Assembly: GCA_000004695.1 (NCBI GenBank)
Contig: CM000151.3
Coordinates: 7,136,001 to 7,200,000 of the forward strand
Direction of reading: 5' to 3'
DNA from: Dictyostelium discoideum
Taxonomy: Eukaryota
DNA length: 64,000 nucleotides
The notes beneath the pieces were generated by a model. It did not search any database and was not told where the DNA came from. It was given only the letters and a program-made list of their open reading frames with translations. The position numbers and the translations under genes are program-made. Shown here in pieces: positions 8,626 to 52,054 of this stretch. Each line of letters starts with the position of its first letter. Within the stretch, counting starts at the first letter, position 1.

Positions 8626-8840
8626 TTTTAAAATTAAAAATAAATTAAAGAAAAAAAAAAAGATTTAAAAAAATTAATTACACCTGTATTTATAGATTTT
8701 TATTTTTTTTAAATTTTTTCCAAAATTATCTTTTTTGAAAATCAATGTTTTTTAATTTTTTTTTTTTTTTTTTTAATTTTTAGTGTGAGATTTCCCATCC
8801 AAACTTTTTTTTTTTATTTTTTTTTTTTTTACAAAATAAT

Positions 8841-8922
8841 TATGTGTGCCGGGTTTCGATCCCGGGAATCGGTTAACGAAATGAAGCCCTGAACGTCACG
8901 CAATAACCACTCTGCCACACAC
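8841..8922 (-). ncRNA. tRNA-like sequence with an initiator-type T-loop; possible tRNA pseudogene or intron-containing tRNA
   Basis: The minus strand reads GTGTGTG-GCAG-AGTGGTTA-TTGC-...-CCGGG-ATCGAAA-CCCGG-CACACAT-A. It has a 7-bp acceptor stem (with a G1.U72 wobble pair), a D-arm with the canonical AGTGGTTA loop, and a T-arm whose loop ATCGAAA has A54/A60 as in eukaryotic tRNAi-Met. It has no U8/N9 and carries a 15-nt anticodon loop, so it is not a canonical tRNA. Confidence 0.3.
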
Positions 8923-9284
8923 TTAATTTTTTTTTTTTTTTTTTTAAATCGAAATTTTTATTATTTTTTTTTTCCAGATTATTTCTACTTAATCTTAGAA
9001 TCTTTGAGTTTTTTGGGAAATAAAAAAATAGTCAACAACCTCTCTTTTATATTAAATGAAAAAAAAAATTTCTAATTAATGGTTTTTAAGTTTAAATTCA
9101 ACATTAATTTTGGCAATCCAAAAAAAAAAAAAAAATTAATTTTTATTATTATTAGAAAAAAAAAAAAAAAATTTTTATTATTATTTTTTATTTAAATTTA
9201 ATTCGTTTATTTAATTTATAATAAAAAGTCGCCCAAATATATTAATGTTTTGTTTTGTTTTTTTTCTTTTTTTTTTTTCAATAA

Positions 9285-11343
9285 TTTACAAAGTTTGGTC
9301 TTGTAAAAAATGATGATGCACTTATCAATGCAATTGTATCATTTGATTGATTGATTGAATTATTTAAATTATTTGAGATCGATGAATCACTTTTTGAAGA
9401 TGATTTAAATGAGAATGAAATTAATGATTCTAAATAATTTTTAAAAAAAAAGTTAATTAATAATTATTCATTGGAAAATAAAAAAATTATTGTTTAGAAA
9501 TACATACTGAATAACATTTTAGTTTTTATTCTTTATATTAATAGTTTGATATTTAATTTTTAATATTTGTTTCAATTTGATAATGATTATTATTTTTTTT
9601 TTTTTCTATTTATACTTTTTTTTTTTTTACCCCATTTGTTTTTTTTTTTTTTTTTTTTAATTTTATTCTTTTCTAAAAATAACCACACTCTTTATTATAA
9701 TTAAACAATATTAAAAGAGTATTAAAATTAAATTTAAAATTATGTTGTCGACATAAACATTACCTTTTAAAAAATCAAAAATTAAATGTTATCAACATGA
9801 ATGAGATTTATGATTTTGTATTATTATTATTATTATTATTATTATTGGAACAATATTGATATTAATCATTTAAAATTCAAATTAAACCATAGTTTTAATA
9901 ATTATAATTGTTAAAATTATAATTGATATAATTATTAAAACTATGATTTAAAATAAAATAAATAATTTTTTATTTAAGAATAATAAAAGCCTAAATAAAT
10001 AAAAAATTGATTGGATTAATTTCCTTTATTAATTTATTTAATTAAAATAAAATAATTGGTTTTTGGTTTAATGAATTCCTTTATTGATTTTTGTTTGGTT
10101 GGTCGTTTTTAAATATTAATCCACATTGAATAAATAAATTTAAAAATTGGGAAATTATTTAAAGAATTCATATAAATTCTCTAATTAAAATAAAATTTAA
10201 AAACAATAGTTATTATTTTACCGAGATATCATCAAATGAATGTTTTCCAAAATTATAAAAAAAATAAATGTTCATTGTAATTGGATTTAAAAGAGTAGTT
10301 AACTTTGTTTTTTATTTATTTTAATTTTAGTTATTTTTTCAAAAAAACAGTGAGGATTAATTTTTTAAAAAAGAAATGGTAAATTAGAATTTTATCTATT
10401 GAAATGATATCACTTTCAATACATTGAGTTATTTAAAATGATGACATTATTTTTTTAATCATTTGTTTTTTGATTGCTTCATTTATAAATACACCATAAA
10501 TATTCCGTAAAAAACTAATTAATTTTGATAAAAAAAAATGATCTGAATGACATAATTTAAATATAGAAGAATAAATAAAAAAAAAATAATCATTTTTCAA
10601 TGATACTCATGGATTTTATTTTTATTCCCTTTAAAAGATGAGTAATTGAGGATTTTAAATGATTATTTTAATGATGTAAATAATGTTTTCAACTATTATA
10701 TTGAATCAATTTAACAATGATGATAGAATCATACTTTTTTTAGTGTGTAAAATAATAAAAAATATTTAAAAAATAAAAAAAAAAACTTTTTTTAAATCAA
10801 AAGATAATAAAATCATTATCTTGTACTTGTTAGTATCATACTTCTTGATTAAAATTTATTTACTTTATTATTTAACTTGTATGTCAACATAATAATTTTA
10901 CAAAAAAAATTAAATATTCCATATCTCTTGTTTAGGGTTATGTAGTGGTTAAAAATGGTGTAATTATTTAGCGGGGTAAAATAAAAAAAAAGATAAAAAA
11001 AAAAAAAAAAGTATAAATAGAATTTTTATTTTTTTAATTTATTCCAAAATAAAAACCAATTGTTAATTAAATAAATATATATTAAAAAAATCCTAAAAAT
11101 AAAATGTTATTCAGTATGTATTTTAAAAAAAAAAAAAAAAAAAAAAAATTAAAAAACAAAATTCTAATTAATTTATTTTATTATTTATAGAATCAATTAT
11201 TTCATTATCAAATAAATCATCAAATGTTTCATCATCAAAATCATTATTATCAAATGACTCTAATTTAAATTCATTTGATTTTACATGTAATACTGTCTCA
11301 AATAAGAGTTCAACAACATTCTTTACAAGACCAAACTTTGTAA
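9285..11343. repeat. roughly 2.06-kb non-coding inverted-repeat-bounded element, copy 1
   Basis: The left IR starts at 9285 on the plus strand; the right IR ends at 11343 on the minus strand. Both carry the perfect 23-bp palindromic core TTTACAAAGTTTGGTCTTGTAAA, followed inward by about 130 bp of diverged homologous sequence. The interior shares the same conserved blocks as the other copies (10620-10735, 10795-10990). No ORF of 60 aa or more is present. Confidence 0.7.
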
Positions 11344-13222
11344 ACTATTAAAAAAAAAAAAAAAAAATTAAAAATTTTAATTAAAGTACGAACATAAAAA
11401 ACTTATTTATTAAAAATGTACCGACCAAATTTGTAAATAAAATAAAAAAACAATAAAAAACATTTAAAAAAAAAAAAAAAAAAATTTTTTTTTGTTTAAA
11501 TTATTTGTATTTTACTAAAAAAAAAAAAAAAAAATAGAATGAAGTGGATTTTATGATTAATATTTTTTAAATCGATTTTCATTTATTAAACTCTTATATA
11601 AATATAATAATCTATTAAAAATTAAAAAATCTTTTTTTTTTTTTTTATCACATTTTAAAATTATTTATTAATTTAATAAATTTTATTATTGGTATTATTT
11701 TTTTTAATATTAAATTATAAATAAATGATTATTAAATTATTATTATTCATAAGAAAATAATATTATGTTTTGATTTTTTTATAATAAAAAAGGAATAAAT
11801 TATTTAAAAAAATAAAAAATTTTTATTTTGTTGGGTTATATAGTTTTTATAGCCCAATTAAGAATTCATAAGTCATATAGGCCGTGTAGCATTTGTTAAA
11901 TGGACTATAATTATTATATCCCAAATAGTCCTTTTAAAAATTTTACCTGGCTGTGAACATTGTATATTGGGTTCCTTTATTTATTTTTGTTTGGTTGGTA
12001 ATTTCTTTAAAAATATTAATCCATTTTGATCAAATAAATTAAGGAATTGGGAAATATATTAGAGAATTAATTTATATTTTATAATAATTTTATTTTTAAA
12101 TTTATTTTTATTATTTTAAAAAGTTGTCCTCAAATGAAAGTATTTCAAAATTTTTAAAAAAATAATCATTGCAAAAGGAATTTTCTTTAAAAGAGTACTT
12201 TAGTTTTGTTATTAATCTTATTTATATTGATTTTAGTTATTTTAATTATTTTTTAAATAGCCAATGGGATTAGTTTCTTTTTATCTATTGAAATGATCAT
12301 TTTAAATACAATCAATGATTTTATAATGATGATATTATTTGGTCCTTTGTTTTATAATTTCTTCATTTATATATACATCCCTTAAAAATTAAATATTCTT
12401 GATTTAATATATAATCTAATTGATATAATTTAAATAAAAACAAAAAAAAGAAATATAAAAACATCATTTTTCGATGATACTTGTGGGTTATCATTTTTTT
12501 CCCTTTAAAAGATGAGTAATTGAGGACTTTAAATGATTATTTTAATTATGTAAATAATGTTTTCAACTATTTTATTGAATCAATTTAACAATGATGATAG
12601 AATCATATATTTATTTAGTGTCGAAAATAATAAAAAATAAAAAAAAAAAATAAAAAAAAAACTTTTTTAAATCAAAAGATAATGAAATCATAATCTTGTA
12701 CTTGTTAGTATCATACTTCTTGATTAAAATTTATTTACTTTATTATTTAACTTGTATGTCAACATAATAATTTTACAAAAAAATATAATATTCCTTATCT
12801 CTTGTTTAGGGTTCTGTAGTGGTTAAAAATGGGGTAATTATTTAGTGGGGTAAAATAAATAAAAAAAGATAAAAAAAAAATAAAAAAAAAAGTATAAATA
12901 GAATTTTTATTTTTTTAATTTATTCCAAAATAAAAATCAATTGTTAAATAAATAAATATAAATTAAAAAAAACCTAAAAAAATGTTATTCAGTATGTATT
13001 AAATAAAAAAAAAAAAAAAAAATTAAAAAAATAACAAAATTCTAATTAATATATTTTATTATTTTTAGAATCAATTATTTCATTATCAAATAAATCATCA
13101 AATGTTGCATCATCAAAATCATTATTATCAAATGACTCTAATTTAAATTCATTTGATTTTACATGTAATACTGTCTCAAATAAGAGTTCAACAACATTCT
13201 TTACAAGACCAAACTTTGTAAA
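11344..13222. repeat. partial tandem duplicate of the element interior plus its right IR (no left IR)
   Basis: Blocks at 12490-12610 and 12670-12870 and the right IR at 13070-13222 (core 13200..13222) repeat 10620-11343 with a period of roughly 1875 bp. Confidence 0.7.
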
Positions 13223-15076: not shown

Positions 15077-15176
15077 NNNNNNNNNNNNNNNNNNNNNNNN
15101 NNNNNNNNNNNNNNNNNNNNNNNNNNNNNNNNNNNNNNNNNNNNNNNNNNNNNNNNNNNNNNNNNNNNNNNNNNNN
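15077..15176. other. assembly gap (100 N)
   Basis: A run of n characters. It falls inside the tandem array; the B-to-C unit is about 1.8 kb, whereas the other units are about 3.7 kb. Confidence 0.99.
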
Positions 15177-36693: not shown

Positions 36694-37337
36694 ATGACAA
36701 ACAACAATAATAATTTAAATAAAGAAGGTTGGTAAAATAAAAAAAAAAAATAAAAAGAATAGTAATAAATAAAAAATATAAAATTATTAATAATTCTTTT
36801 TTTTTTTACTTAGTTAATAACTTAGAAAAAGAAGCAGTATCAGCATATGATAACACAAAAGAAGCAACAATCAATGCATATAATGCAACAACAAATGCAA
36901 TGAGTGATGGTATGAAATATGTTAGTGATTCATTATCATCAGCAGCTGAAGTAACAAAAGATGCAACAATCAATATGTATAATGCAACAACTAACGCAGT
37001 GAGTGATGGTTATGAATCTTTAAAATCAAAAACAAATGAATTAATTGACAATACTCAAAATGAAAATAAAAATTTAAAAGATGGTACTTCAAAGAAAATC
37101 GAAGAATTAAAAGATGAATCAAGTGAAGTAAAAGATAATATTAAAGAAAAAGGCGAAGAACTAGTTGAAGATGCTAAAGATGCTGCTCATAATGCTTCAA
37201 ATAAATTAAATAACGCTAAAGATCAAGTTTCTGATAAAATGGATAATGTAAAAGATGATTTATCAAATAAATACGATGAAACAAAAAAAGAAGCCGCTCA
37301 CAAACTTAATCAAGCTTCAAATAAAATTGATCAATAA
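36694..37337 (+). CDS. LEA-like 11-mer-repeat protein, diverged paralog G (145-aa ORF; one internal unit)
   Basis: Exon 1 is 36694..36727 (MTNNNNNLNKE) with a GTTGGT donor. Exon 2 is 36814..37337. A TATA box (ctataaattt) lies upstream. Confidence 0.75.
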
Positions 37338-37980: not shown

Positions 37981-38667
37981 ATGACAAACAATGACAATAT
38001 AAATAAAGAATGTAAGATTTTGGAAATAATAATATAAAAAAAAAAAAAACCATTAAAAAAAAAAAAAAAATAATTCTAACAATGTTATATAACATTTTTT
38101 TCCATAGCTACAAATTTTAAAAATGATGTAGTTACAGCATATGATAATTCATTAGATGCAATGAGTGATGGTATGAAATATGTTGGTGATTCGTTGTCAT
38201 CAGCAGCCGAAGTAACAAAAGATAAAACAATTGAAATGTATCATAAAACAACTAATGCAATGAGTGATGGTTATGAATCATTAAAATCAAAAGCAAATGA
38301 ATTAATTCACCATTCAAATGATGATGATGAAAGTCAACATGAAGATGGTGCTTCTAAAAAAGTTGAAGAATTAAAAGAGAAATCCAATCAAGTTAAAGAT
38401 GATATTAAAAAGAAGGGTGAAGAATTAAAAGAGAAATCAATAGATGTTAAAAATGAAATAAAGGATAATTTAAAAGAAAAAGGTGAGGAACTAGTTGACG
38501 ATGCTAAAGATGCTGCTCATAAAGCTTCAAATAAGATGAATGGTGTTAAAGATAATTTATCAGAAAAGATGGACGATATTAAATCTGATATGTCTGATAA
38601 ATATAAAGATGTAAAAAAAGAAACTGCTAATAAATTAAATCAAACTGCTAATAAAATTGATCAATAA
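37981..38667 (+). CDS. LEA-like 11-mer-repeat protein, most diverged paralog H (168-aa ORF)
   Basis: Exon 1 is 37981..38011 (MTNNDNINKE) with a GTAAGA donor. Exon 2 is 38108..38667. It retains MSDGMKYVGDSLSSAAEVTKD and the C-terminal ...KLNQTANKIDQ. Confidence 0.75.
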
Positions 38668-38863
38668 TAATTTTTAAGACTTTTTATTAATATTGATTAA
38701 TTTATTTATCATTTAATTATAAAATTTGATTTTATTTATTAAATTTAATAATATTTTTTATATTTGAAAGTTTATTAAAAAACATTAATGATTCATTTGC
38801 TTGGTAATCTATTTAATCACTAATCCTTTTAGTTTATGAACCACCACCATGACTATTATCTGT

Positions 38864-39042
38864 CCCATGCCAAAATTAATATGGCTGCTGAAATTAATAT
38901 GATAATTTTGGCATGGGACTTATGTCTGCTAGAATTACCATATTAATTTCGGCAACCATATTAATTTTGGCATGCACAGACCAACTATTTTAGGCTAAAA
39001 TTAATATGGCTGCCGAAATTAATATGGTAATTTTGGGCACAG
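38864..39042. repeat. cluster of three roughly 48-bp imperfect palindromic units arranged direct-inverted-direct
   Basis: The unit is CCAAAATTAATATGGCTGCYGAAATTAATATGRTAATTTTGG, flanked by GCATGG. It occurs at 38864..38917, inverted at about 38929..38978, and direct at about 38995..39042. Each unit can fold into a hairpin. The cluster is GC-richer than its surroundings. Confidence 0.7.
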
Positions 39043-39555
39043 AAAAATAAAAAAAAAACTCAAAGTCATTTAATTAATAATAATAATCATCTCAAATATA
39101 AAAGAATTAAAAATAATAATAAAAAAAAACTCATGGGATTAATTATAGTAACAATACTGACGACAAGAATAATTATAAAATAAAAAAAAAAAAAAAAAAT
39201 CTTTTTTTATCTTTTTATTTTTATTTCTTATTTATTTTCATGTGTTCTAAAAAAGTGGTGGTTTAAAACAATTTATTTAATTTTAAACTGTATGATTGTT
39301 TAAACAATTTCGAAATAAGTTTCTTTAATTTCTGTATTTCTTTTTTTTATTTTATTTTATTTCATTTCATTCTATTTTTTTTTTTTTTTTTTTTTTTTTT
39401 ATTTTTTTATTTTTTATTTTTTTTTTAATTATTTTAATTAATTTAATTATATAATGATTTAATAATAAAAAATTAATATTTAGAAAAGTGACTGATTGAG
39501 ATACCTGCGTTATTTTGCTTGATTAACAAAAAAAAGAATCCAAAATATGGTCCAC

Positions 39556-39824
39556 AGTAAAAACAATAAATTAAATAATCAACTTTCTGCAACAGAAATT
39601 GAAAAAAATAATAATAATAAATTAAAAAAACTTTTGAAAAAATATGAAGAAGATGTAAATTTTACAAATAGATTATAAATTTCATGTGTCCAATAAATTT
39701 GGTATTATGAAATTGTAAAATTTACATCTTCGTCATATTTTTTCAAAAGTTTTTTTAATTTATTATTATTATTTTTTTCAATTTCTGTTGCAGAAAGTTG
39801 ATTATTTAATTTATTGTTTTTACT
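39556..39824. repeat. near-perfect 112-bp inverted duplication with a 45-bp spacer
   Basis: The left arm (39556..39667) is the reverse complement of the right arm (39713..39824), with one mismatch (gaagaagatg versus the reverse complement of catcttcgtcat). The left arm begins a 43-codon ORF, MVHSKNNKLNNQLSATEIEKNNNNKLKKLLKKYEEDVNFTNRL. Confidence 0.8.
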
Positions 39825-39955
39825 TTTTTTTTTTAAATTATTAACCACAACCAATTCTTAATTAATTTTATATTTTTTTTTATTATTTTTTTTTTTTGAT
39901 AAATTAAATTCAAAAAATATTTATAAAAAAAAAAAAAAAAAAAATTAAAAAAAAA

Positions 39956-40266
39956 ATGGTAAAAACATCAATATATGTAGGAGGTTTAAAGTAATTATTT
40001 CTATTTTTATTTTTTTAAAAAAAAAAAGTATAAATAATTTACTCTTTTTTTTTAAAAATTTAAGTTCTCATATTTCTAAAGAAATTTTAAAAACAAAGTT
40101 TTCAGTGTATGGTGAAATACAATCACTTGTTTTTGTAAAAGGTAAGGAAACAGGAATATCAGAAGGTTATGCATATATTGAATATAATAATAAAGAAGAT
40201 GCTGTGAAAGCAATAGATGATTTAAACGACCAACCATTTGAGGGTAATCATTTAGAATTATTTTAG
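39956..40266 (+). CDS. small RRM (RNA-recognition-motif) protein, about 78 aa, two exons
   Basis: Exon 1 is 39956..39990 (MVKTSIYVGGL plus two nucleotides; the RNP2-like segment is IYVGGL) with a GTAATT donor. The intron ends at AG 40063-64. Exon 2 is 40065..40266 (SHISKEILKTKFSVYGEIQSLVFVKGKETGISEGYAYIEYNNKEDAVKAIDDLNDQPFEGNHLELF*), and its RNP1-like segment is GYAYIEY. Confidence 0.7.
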
Positions 40267-51980: not shown

Positions 51981-52054
51981 GCCTTAGTAGCTCAGTTGGT
52001 ACGAGCGTGAGACTGAAGATCTTAAGGTCGCTGGTTCGATCCCGGCCTGAGGCA
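51981..52054 (+). tRNA. tRNA-Phe (anticodon GAA)
   Basis: The sequence is GCCTTAGTAGCTCAGTTGGTACGAGCGTGAGACTGAAGATCTTAAGGTCGCTGGTTCGATCCCGGCCTGAGGCA. The A box is TAGCTCAGTTGG and the B box is GGTTCGATCC. The anticodon loop CTGAAGA carries anticodon GAA. The acceptor pairs GCCTTAG with CTGAGGC. Confidence 0.95.

Follow-up and report, generated by a model that had tools for sequence, protein, structure and literature searches.

An intergenic segment of Dictyostelium discoideum AX4 chromosome 2 contains what, judged from the comparison of its two arms and of related genomes, is a real inverted duplication of recent date, in which about 112 bp of intergenic sequence were copied in the AX4 lineage. 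The analysis covered a 64-kb stretch of this chromosome (the window; about 20% G+C), and all positions given below refer to it unless another genome is named. We tentatively favour the interpretation that the young duplication yields small RNAs, i.e. that it is a hairpin-RNA or proto-miRNA locus, a possibility that in our estimate comes close to an even chance without reaching it.

Results

Structure and predicted folding of the hairpin

The inverted duplication extends from 39556 to 39824 (269 nt) and is intergenic. Base-by-base comparison and an inverted-repeat search showed that its arms, 39556-39667 (left) and 39713-39824 (right), are 112 nt long and complementary at 111 of the 112 positions. 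The left arm, which has a G+C content of 15%, begins with a perfect run of 92 nt (39556-39647), followed by the sole mismatch at 39648 and by 19 further perfect pairs. The mismatched bases are A at 39648 and G at 39732, which would be juxtaposed as A.G in RNA of the plus strand and as C.U in RNA of the minus strand. The identity of the arms is 99.1%, corresponding to a divergence of 0.9%. The arms enclose a 45-nt spacer (39668-39712), the terminal loop region, which is partly self-complementary and contains a small inner stem: six of the ten arm-adjacent positions are still paired, and pairing fades toward the centre. It is because of this partial self-complementarity that the inverted-repeat search returned longer arms (122 nt, 96%) separated by a gap of only 25 nt. 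The spacer also carries an AATAAA sequence (39692-39697) and the stop codon of an ORF, which is discussed below.

The predicted RNA fold of the plus strand had an energy of -150.8 kcal/mol, compared to -39.6 ± 4.3 kcal/mol for dinucleotide shuffles (z = -26.2), and the minus strand yielded a very similar value (-148.7 kcal/mol, z = -26.8). The DNA fold of the hairpin was -115.9 (z = -30). The energy per nucleotide is approximately -0.56 kcal/mol/nt, calculated by dividing the -150.8 kcal/mol of a 301-nt fold by 269 nt. This value is lower than -0.2 kcal/mol/nt, the upper limit for miRNA precursors in the Kozomara and Griffiths-Jones criteria as used in D. discoideum (PMC6161686). On either strand the stem has 112 bp with one mismatch, and is thus of the near-perfect kind, at least 100 bp long, that is required structurally of an hpRNA. 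Only duplexes cut from across 39648/39732 would contain a mismatch, all other duplexes derived from the hairpin would be perfect. When the whole 64-kb window was scanned, the hairpin was the only long inverted repeat of high identity; the remaining ones had identities of 70-87% and consisted of A/T low-complexity sequence (poly-A/poly-T). These data agree with the original prediction of a 112-bp near-perfect inverted duplication with a 45-bp spacer and a single-base difference. The suggestion made there that a transcript crossing the site could form dsRNA is also supported thermodynamically, by the predicted RNA folds of both strands with their stem of about 112 bp.

The hairpin in comparison with related Dictyostelium genomes

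Corresponding loci were found by a search with the 168-aa ORF located upstream of the hairpin. The search identified two annotated proteins in other Dictyostelium assemblies: P0003 (86% identical) in locus L001 of Dictyostelium cf. discoideum (GCA_054859205.1) and P0004 (77% identical) in locus L002 (GCA_054859355.1). The window and the two loci share the same gene order: HSP20, a large TPR_TmcB protein, two small paralogues, the intergenic region, a GPI-PLD-like gene and CfaA_B_C. In the window the two small paralogues are tandem ORFs at 36900-37337 and 38161-38667 (145 and 168 aa), which are YtxH/apolipoprotein-like with scores just below the Pfam cut-offs. Their orthologues are annotated with lengths of 185 and 192 aa in L001, and 178 and 174 aa in L002. 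The exact sequences of the two window ORFs were missing from a collection of 15 billion proteins although the collection includes the AX4 proteome, and it may be that the AX4 gene models for them differ or are missing. At the DNA level L001, the closer of the two relatives, is about 84-90% identical to the window, and the aligned stretch of L002 about 81%. By their sequences the sources of L001 and L002 behave as sister species, not as AX4-like strains.

The intergenic region was compared with that of L001 by the use of BLAST anchors; global MAFFT alignment forced the gap to one end. Robust anchors stop at 38780 and restart at 39922, leaving 1141 bp in the window opposite 374 bp in L001. Weaker anchors, obtained at low stringency, narrow the window-specific segment to about 38837-39819. 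The segment without an L001 counterpart can be given as about 38791-39818, with approximate boundaries, and it comprises a copy of a thug-S-type element, a T-rich tract and the hairpin. Similarity to L001 resumes at around 39819, approximately where the right arm has its outer border, as far as can be told from an alignment of A/T-rich sequence made at low stringency. In L001 the syntenic stretch between the genes contained neither a thug-S copy nor a hairpin, and the L001 copy of the RRM-protein gene that follows the hairpin in AX4 (L001 positions 11198-11500) seems to carry a frameshift and has no gene call. L002 runs straight from the equivalent of window position ~38790 to that of ~40257 (at about 10700 in L002), and it lacks the thug-S copy, the hairpin and the entire RRM gene. 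Relative to these two loci the hairpin is, by this comparison, specific to the AX4 lineage. Since the arms differ by 0.9% and the species by 10-16%, the hairpin appears to be much younger than the split of the species, barring conversion between the arms. The recent origin that had been raised as a possibility for the structure from its sequence is corroborated both by the 99.1% identity of the arms and by the absence of the structure from the syntenic regions of two related Dictyostelium genomes.

The right arm ends (...GTTTTTACT) near the position where similarity to L001 restarts (...ATTTAC followed by a T-run), which suggests a microhomology junction. No target-site duplication was detected at the borders of the hairpin: the junction reads ...GGTCCAC | TTTTTTTT..., and the two flanking sequences, ...ATGGTCCAC and TTTTTTTTTTAAATT..., have no common direct repeat. 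We also considered fold-back priming at the TTTCAT/ATGAAA microhomology of the spacer. This model was rejected, it leaves the inner junction unexplained and needs a skip of 12 nt, and we do not claim any priming site.

The open reading frame overlapping the left arm

A 43-codon ORF on the plus strand (39547-39678) is an exact match to the hypothetical protein DDB_G0276727 (XP_643006.1), which forms a singleton cluster. The ATG (39547-39549) is located 9 nt upstream of the left arm, which therefore does not supply the start codon as had been assumed, and the stop codon (39676-39678) is inside the spacer. The left arm spans roughly codons 4-40 of the 43. The original view of the hairpin as an inverted duplication of the 5' end of a tiny gene does not fit this arrangement: the arm covers nearly the whole ORF, with ATG and stop both outside the arms. 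There is a single open frame in the arm. Translation of the right arm on the minus strand gives this peptide again, with one E to D replacement and with no ATG, so the sole difference between the arms is non-synonymous.

The peptide had no relatives. Only the self-match was found in a word-indexed search of 5.8 billion proteins and when 1.84 billion representatives were scanned in full with HMMER; both collections included the AX4 proteome. The peptide contains no Pfam domain above cut-off, and neither L001 nor L002 has the ORF locus. Non-coding DNA on the flanks shows open frames of 37 codons at 2.7% of frame positions, or about 15% if all six frames are taken together. An mRNA containing both arms would, according to the folding model, bury the entire ORF in a stem of -150 kcal/mol. 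Because the ORF has no relatives and no domain, is compatible with chance and would be buried in the stem, the gene model DDB_G0276727 is probably spurious, and what the sequence encodes is probably not a real protein. The idea that a tiny gene founded the repeat thus finds no backing in homologues, Pfam domains or the length of the frame; it is more likely that the ORF is an annotation by-product than that it was the founder.

Genes and elements adjacent to the hairpin

A T-rich tract on the plus strand (39330-39456) precedes the hairpin. It includes a run of 26 Ts (39375-39400), and the first G (39456), where it ends, precedes the left arm by about 100 nt. The tract resembles the T-rich-then-G motif found upstream of pri-miRNA start sites in D. 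discoideum (PMC6161686), a resemblance that does not discriminate, as there are 47 T-runs of at least 15 nt on the same strand in the 64 kb. On the other side, the ATG (39957) of the RRM-protein gene DDB_G0276725 (P0002; 39957-40266, two exons, 78 aa) is approximately 130 bp past the right arm, with an A-run in between. No relatives of this protein were found at E <= 1e-8 among 5.8 billion proteins, and to judge from its sequence and from the related loci DDB_G0276725 looks like a lineage-specific mini-gene in birth or loss beside the hairpin. The outer end of the left arm contains a 9-mer, GTAAAAACA (39557-39565), that recurs at 39959-39967, where it makes up codons 2-4 of the RRM gene (ATGGTAAAAACA); both ORFs start with ATGGT. 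The sharing of GTAAAAACA is probably due to chance, the similarity stops at its ends.

The copy of the thug-S-type element (38833-39269; core 38866-39036) lies about 290-600 bp upstream of the hairpin. The Rfam mir-7131 precursor model matched it at 38878-38964 with 95 bits, the two strands scoring 95 and 88 bits. The copy has three arms of about 43 nt (38869-38911, 38927-38974 and 38994-39036) in +/-/+ orientation, therefore two alternative hairpins are possible. The published miRNA_can_D3-3p sequence matches the minus strand exactly at 39003-39023, and with one mismatch at 38942-38962. Meier et al. 2016, whose criterion was an exact match of both duplex strands, list six loci, and the copy described here is not one of them. 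Possible terminal inverted repeats of the element are GTTTATGAACCACCAC (38833-38848) and GTGGTGGTTTAAAAC (39255-39269). We examined whether the 269-nt hairpin could itself be a thug-S/mir-7131 (RF03716) copy, and rejected it: the hairpin has no Rfam match, and its similarity to the thug-S region is merely A/T low complexity.

A C-rich motif, AACCAC(C/A)ACCA, is present at three sites: at the left end of the thug-S copy (38839-38849), in inverted orientation at its right end (~39253-39263) and just to the right of the hairpin (39841-39851). Such a motif is very unlikely to arise by chance in DNA of 80% A+T. The homologous site in L001 (11034-11063) reads AAACCAC...GTGGTTAG. The motif might mark the end of a transposon, serve as a preferred target or belong to a long direct repeat on the flanks; in the latter case the direct repeat TTATGAACCACCACCA / TTATTAACCACAACCA might bracket the whole AX4-specific segment.

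Copies, known RNA families and published miRNAs

No Rfam family matched the hairpin at E <= 10 when the region 39200-40200 was searched. There was no second copy and no progenitor of the hairpin in the 64-kb window, where BLAST showed the two arms and low-complexity noise, and no second copy in 2 x 20 kb of the related loci. A 35-mer of the arm had 0 matches in a metagenome collection. When all 21-mers of the hairpin were compared with the window in search of targets, only low-complexity matches were obtained.

None of the 33 published mature miRNAs of D. discoideum (Liao 2018, Meier 2016) maps to the hairpin, the thug-S miRNA being the only one with a match in the window, and the miRNA loci tabulated by Liao et al. 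2018 lie elsewhere. Fragments of the hairpin were absent from the supplements of Liao 2018 and Edelbroek 2024 and from the 8 million full texts searched, to which Avesson 2012 and Glockner 2001 did not belong. Likewise, among the loci of Edelbroek 2024 that passed any set of miRNA criteria there was no D. discoideum candidate of approximately 260 nt. If expressed at all, the hairpin would be weakly expressed or imprecisely diced. Heterogeneous siRNAs would go unlisted, because the published lists take only loci that satisfy the precision criteria for miRNAs.

Discussion

The most likely origin of the hairpin is either fold-back priming at a break or template switching during replication. A single recent event of this kind would have created the 269-nt foldback in a rapidly evolving intergenic region. 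If the region is transcribed, in whichever direction, the transcript would form a one-mismatch stem of about 112 bp, which would be a substrate for Dicer, and the Dicer-like enzymes DrnA and/or DrnB would cut it into small RNAs of roughly 21 nt. The locus would then be a hairpin-RNA or proto-miRNA gene that has just been born, has no established target and serves little or no selected function, and the annotated 43-aa ORF would be a by-product of it. This interpretation seems the most natural because young long hairpins (Edelbroek), the layout seen at mir-1177 and the T-rich-then-G tract all occur in the same clade. An additional point in its favour is the presence of a known small-RNA-producing element (thug-S/mir-7131) about 600 bp from the hairpin. 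The points against it are the lack of an entry in the published lists, the lack of a target in the window, the lack of a founder gene and the non-discriminating nature of the T-rich motif. The stronger proposition, that we are looking at a small-RNA gene at its birth, made by one fold-back duplication, transcribed, and with its 112-bp hairpin already diced, is rather unlikely in our judgement; if true, it would be the first D. discoideum case of the "long perfect hairpin" stage in the genesis of miRNAs. Because of its position beside the RRM gene and a transposon-borne miRNA, the hairpin may share a primary transcript with one of these neighbours or affect the downstream gene.

It is instructive to compare the AX4 hairpin with small-RNA loci described in amoebozoans and in other organisms. 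The D. firmibasis miRNA dfi-mir-1190 has a 256-nt hairpin with -0.558 kcal/mol/nt and 0 unpaired bases in the duplex, ppo-mir-1226 of Physarum was described similarly, and both were interpreted as newly evolved miRNAs (Edelbroek et al. 2024, PMC11014262). The AX4 hairpin is like them in being longer than 200 nt, in having a near-perfect stem and in being species-specific, and its folding energy (about -0.56) is close to the -0.558 of dfi-mir-1190. This likeness is one of described structure, not of sequence. [quoted passage not shown] Under a MirGeneDB-type criterion an miRNA duplex must have 16 or more paired positions and contain one mismatch or more (PMC11014262 Table S3); the perfect duplexes of the AX4 hairpin would carry the same flag, "0 unpaired bases", as dfi-mir-1190. 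The Kozomara and Griffiths-Jones criteria for reads are at least 10 reads of the 5p and 3p products, a 3' overhang of 0-4 nt and at least 50% of the reads with the same 5' end (PMC6161686). Between D. discoideum and D. firmibasis whole miRNA "modules" have been gained or lost, with shortening of the orthologous intergenic region (PMC11014262).

In D. discoideum the mature products of miRNA genes depend on the Dicer-like protein DrnB (PMC6161686). One of these genes, ddi-mir-1177, encodes a 151-nt imperfect hairpin, is conserved in group 4 dictyostelids and is DrnB-dependent, and transcripts that run on into the gene behind it were documented (Liao et al. 2018, PMC6161686). The surroundings of the AX4 hairpin are similar: it is an intergenic hairpin with a T-rich motif upstream, followed by an A-run and the ATG of the downstream gene. 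It differs from mir-1177 in being 269 nt long, near-perfect and not conserved.

Further away, young MIRNA genes of plants reportedly formed by inverted duplication of their target genes. The AX4 hairpin shares with them the long near-perfect foldback, the recent inverted duplication and the lineage specificity; the feature that defines the plant genes, arms that resemble a founder or target gene over an extended length, was not found at the protein level, and there was no DNA copy in the window. In Drosophila, hpRNA loci are said to give rise to endogenous siRNAs. They too are genomic inverted repeats with a long dsRNA stem, and the resemblance of the AX4 hairpin to them is more siRNA-like than miRNA-like. 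Drosophila hpRNAs produce Dicer-2-dependent siRNAs, and their targets have been identified. In this respect the AX4 hairpin differs from them, since it can be likened to loci with proven siRNAs and targets only by its predicted structure.

Within the same intergenic region, the thug-S/mir-7131 element resembles the hairpin in being a hairpin-forming inverted repeat that is also missing from L001 and L002. It is different in being multicopy and transposon-borne, with 48-nt arms of 90% complementarity, an Rfam match (95 bits) and published small RNAs; the hairpin has no Rfam match, and its similarity to the thug-S region is of low complexity only. The hairpin also has the appearance of MITE or foldback transposons (long inverted termini, short core, A+T-rich, less than 300 bp), and it departs from them in having neither a target-site duplication nor another copy in the window. 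In terms of how it would work, the AX4 hairpin comes closest to the young long-hairpin miRNAs of amoebozoans, the MIRNAs of plants and the hpRNAs of Drosophila, and it may be considered a possible member of this group.

The main competitor of the small-RNA interpretation is that the same duplication gave rise to a neutral palindrome with negligible transcription, no small RNAs and no function, which is bound for decay or deletion. We regard this as almost as likely as the interpretation that we prefer. It would account for the absence of the hairpin from the lists of miRNA and small-RNA candidates compared, for the lack of targets in the window and of a founder gene among proteins, and for the absence of the hairpin from both relatives, in a region whose instability is indicated by a transposon insertion and by the loss or disruption of the RRM mini-gene in the relatives. 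On the other hand, the genome is compact and the hairpin has a promoter-like T tract on one side and the downstream gene's promoter on the other, a gene model has been annotated on it, and heterogeneous siRNAs would escape lists compiled by miRNA precision criteria. It is improbable that the hairpin belongs to the neighbouring thug-S element or is a DNA transposon of the non-autonomous foldback or MITE-like type. Its form, with long terminal inverted repeats and a short core, would be appropriate, a thug-S/mir-7131 copy lies 290-600 bp away and is missing from L001 jointly with it, and AACCAC(C/A)ACCA is found at 38839-38849 and 39841-39851 and, inverted, near 39254-39263; yet the hairpin lacks a target-site duplication, the 64 kb contain no second copy, the similarity to the thug-S-like region is merely of low complexity with no Rfam mir-7131 match on the hairpin, and the ORF is a singleton in protein collections that include the AX4 proteome.

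Two other explanations appear highly improbable. According to one, DDB_G0276727 does encode a micro-protein, and its 3' region contains, in the form of the right arm, an antisense copy that would serve, for example, self-regulation. The gene is annotated, an A-rich leader precedes its ATG with the T-rich tract further upstream, and the AATAAA of the spacer could end a short mRNA before the right arm. This has to be set against the lack of any homologue or domain, the absence from two relatives, a frame that is compatible with chance and a sole arm difference that is non-synonymous (E/D); besides, AATAAA is ubiquitous in DNA of 80% A+T. According to the other, the hairpin arose by an error of assembly or cloning in the AX4 chromosome 2 sequence. 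The chromosome is a shotgun assembly that still has a gap of 100 Ns (15077-15176), and the hairpin sequence comes from a single AX4 assembly. It must be noted, however, that the arms are not identical, that the 45-nt spacer is asymmetric and only partly paired, that both flanks pass into normal sequence syntenic with other genomes, and that a chimeric read would not place a 157-bp copy neatly within a contig. Taken as a whole, the evidence argues against the hairpin being an assembly artefact or a common genome-wide repeat.

The turnover of miRNAs in Amoebozoa is very fast, and the question of how new ones come into being is open (PMC11014262). An inverted duplication that can be dated and ascribed to a single event is the starting point predicted by the "young miRNA" model, and the AX4 hairpin offers a stem of the perfect type, absence from sister genomes and a known ancestral empty site. 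If small RNAs are diced from it, the hairpin will gain in interest, since the date of the duplication and its ancestral empty site have already been defined; it would then be a tractable case of a newborn hairpin in a genetically manipulable organism, suitable for studying its handling by Dicer-like proteins and the evolution of processing precision. Should it prove silent, it would be of lesser value, as a correction of a probably spurious gene model (DDB_G0276727) and as the record of a fold-back duplication in a genome that has an extremely low mutation rate.

Elsewhere in the window, the 100 Ns at 15077-15176 represent an assembly gap in the chromosome sequence. The window also contains two tRNA genes, an 86-nt tRNA-Leu(CAG) gene on the minus strand (8840-8925) and a tRNA-Phe(GAA) gene on the plus strand (51981-52054). 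tRNA genes are the landing sites of the TRE retrotransposons of Dictyostelium.
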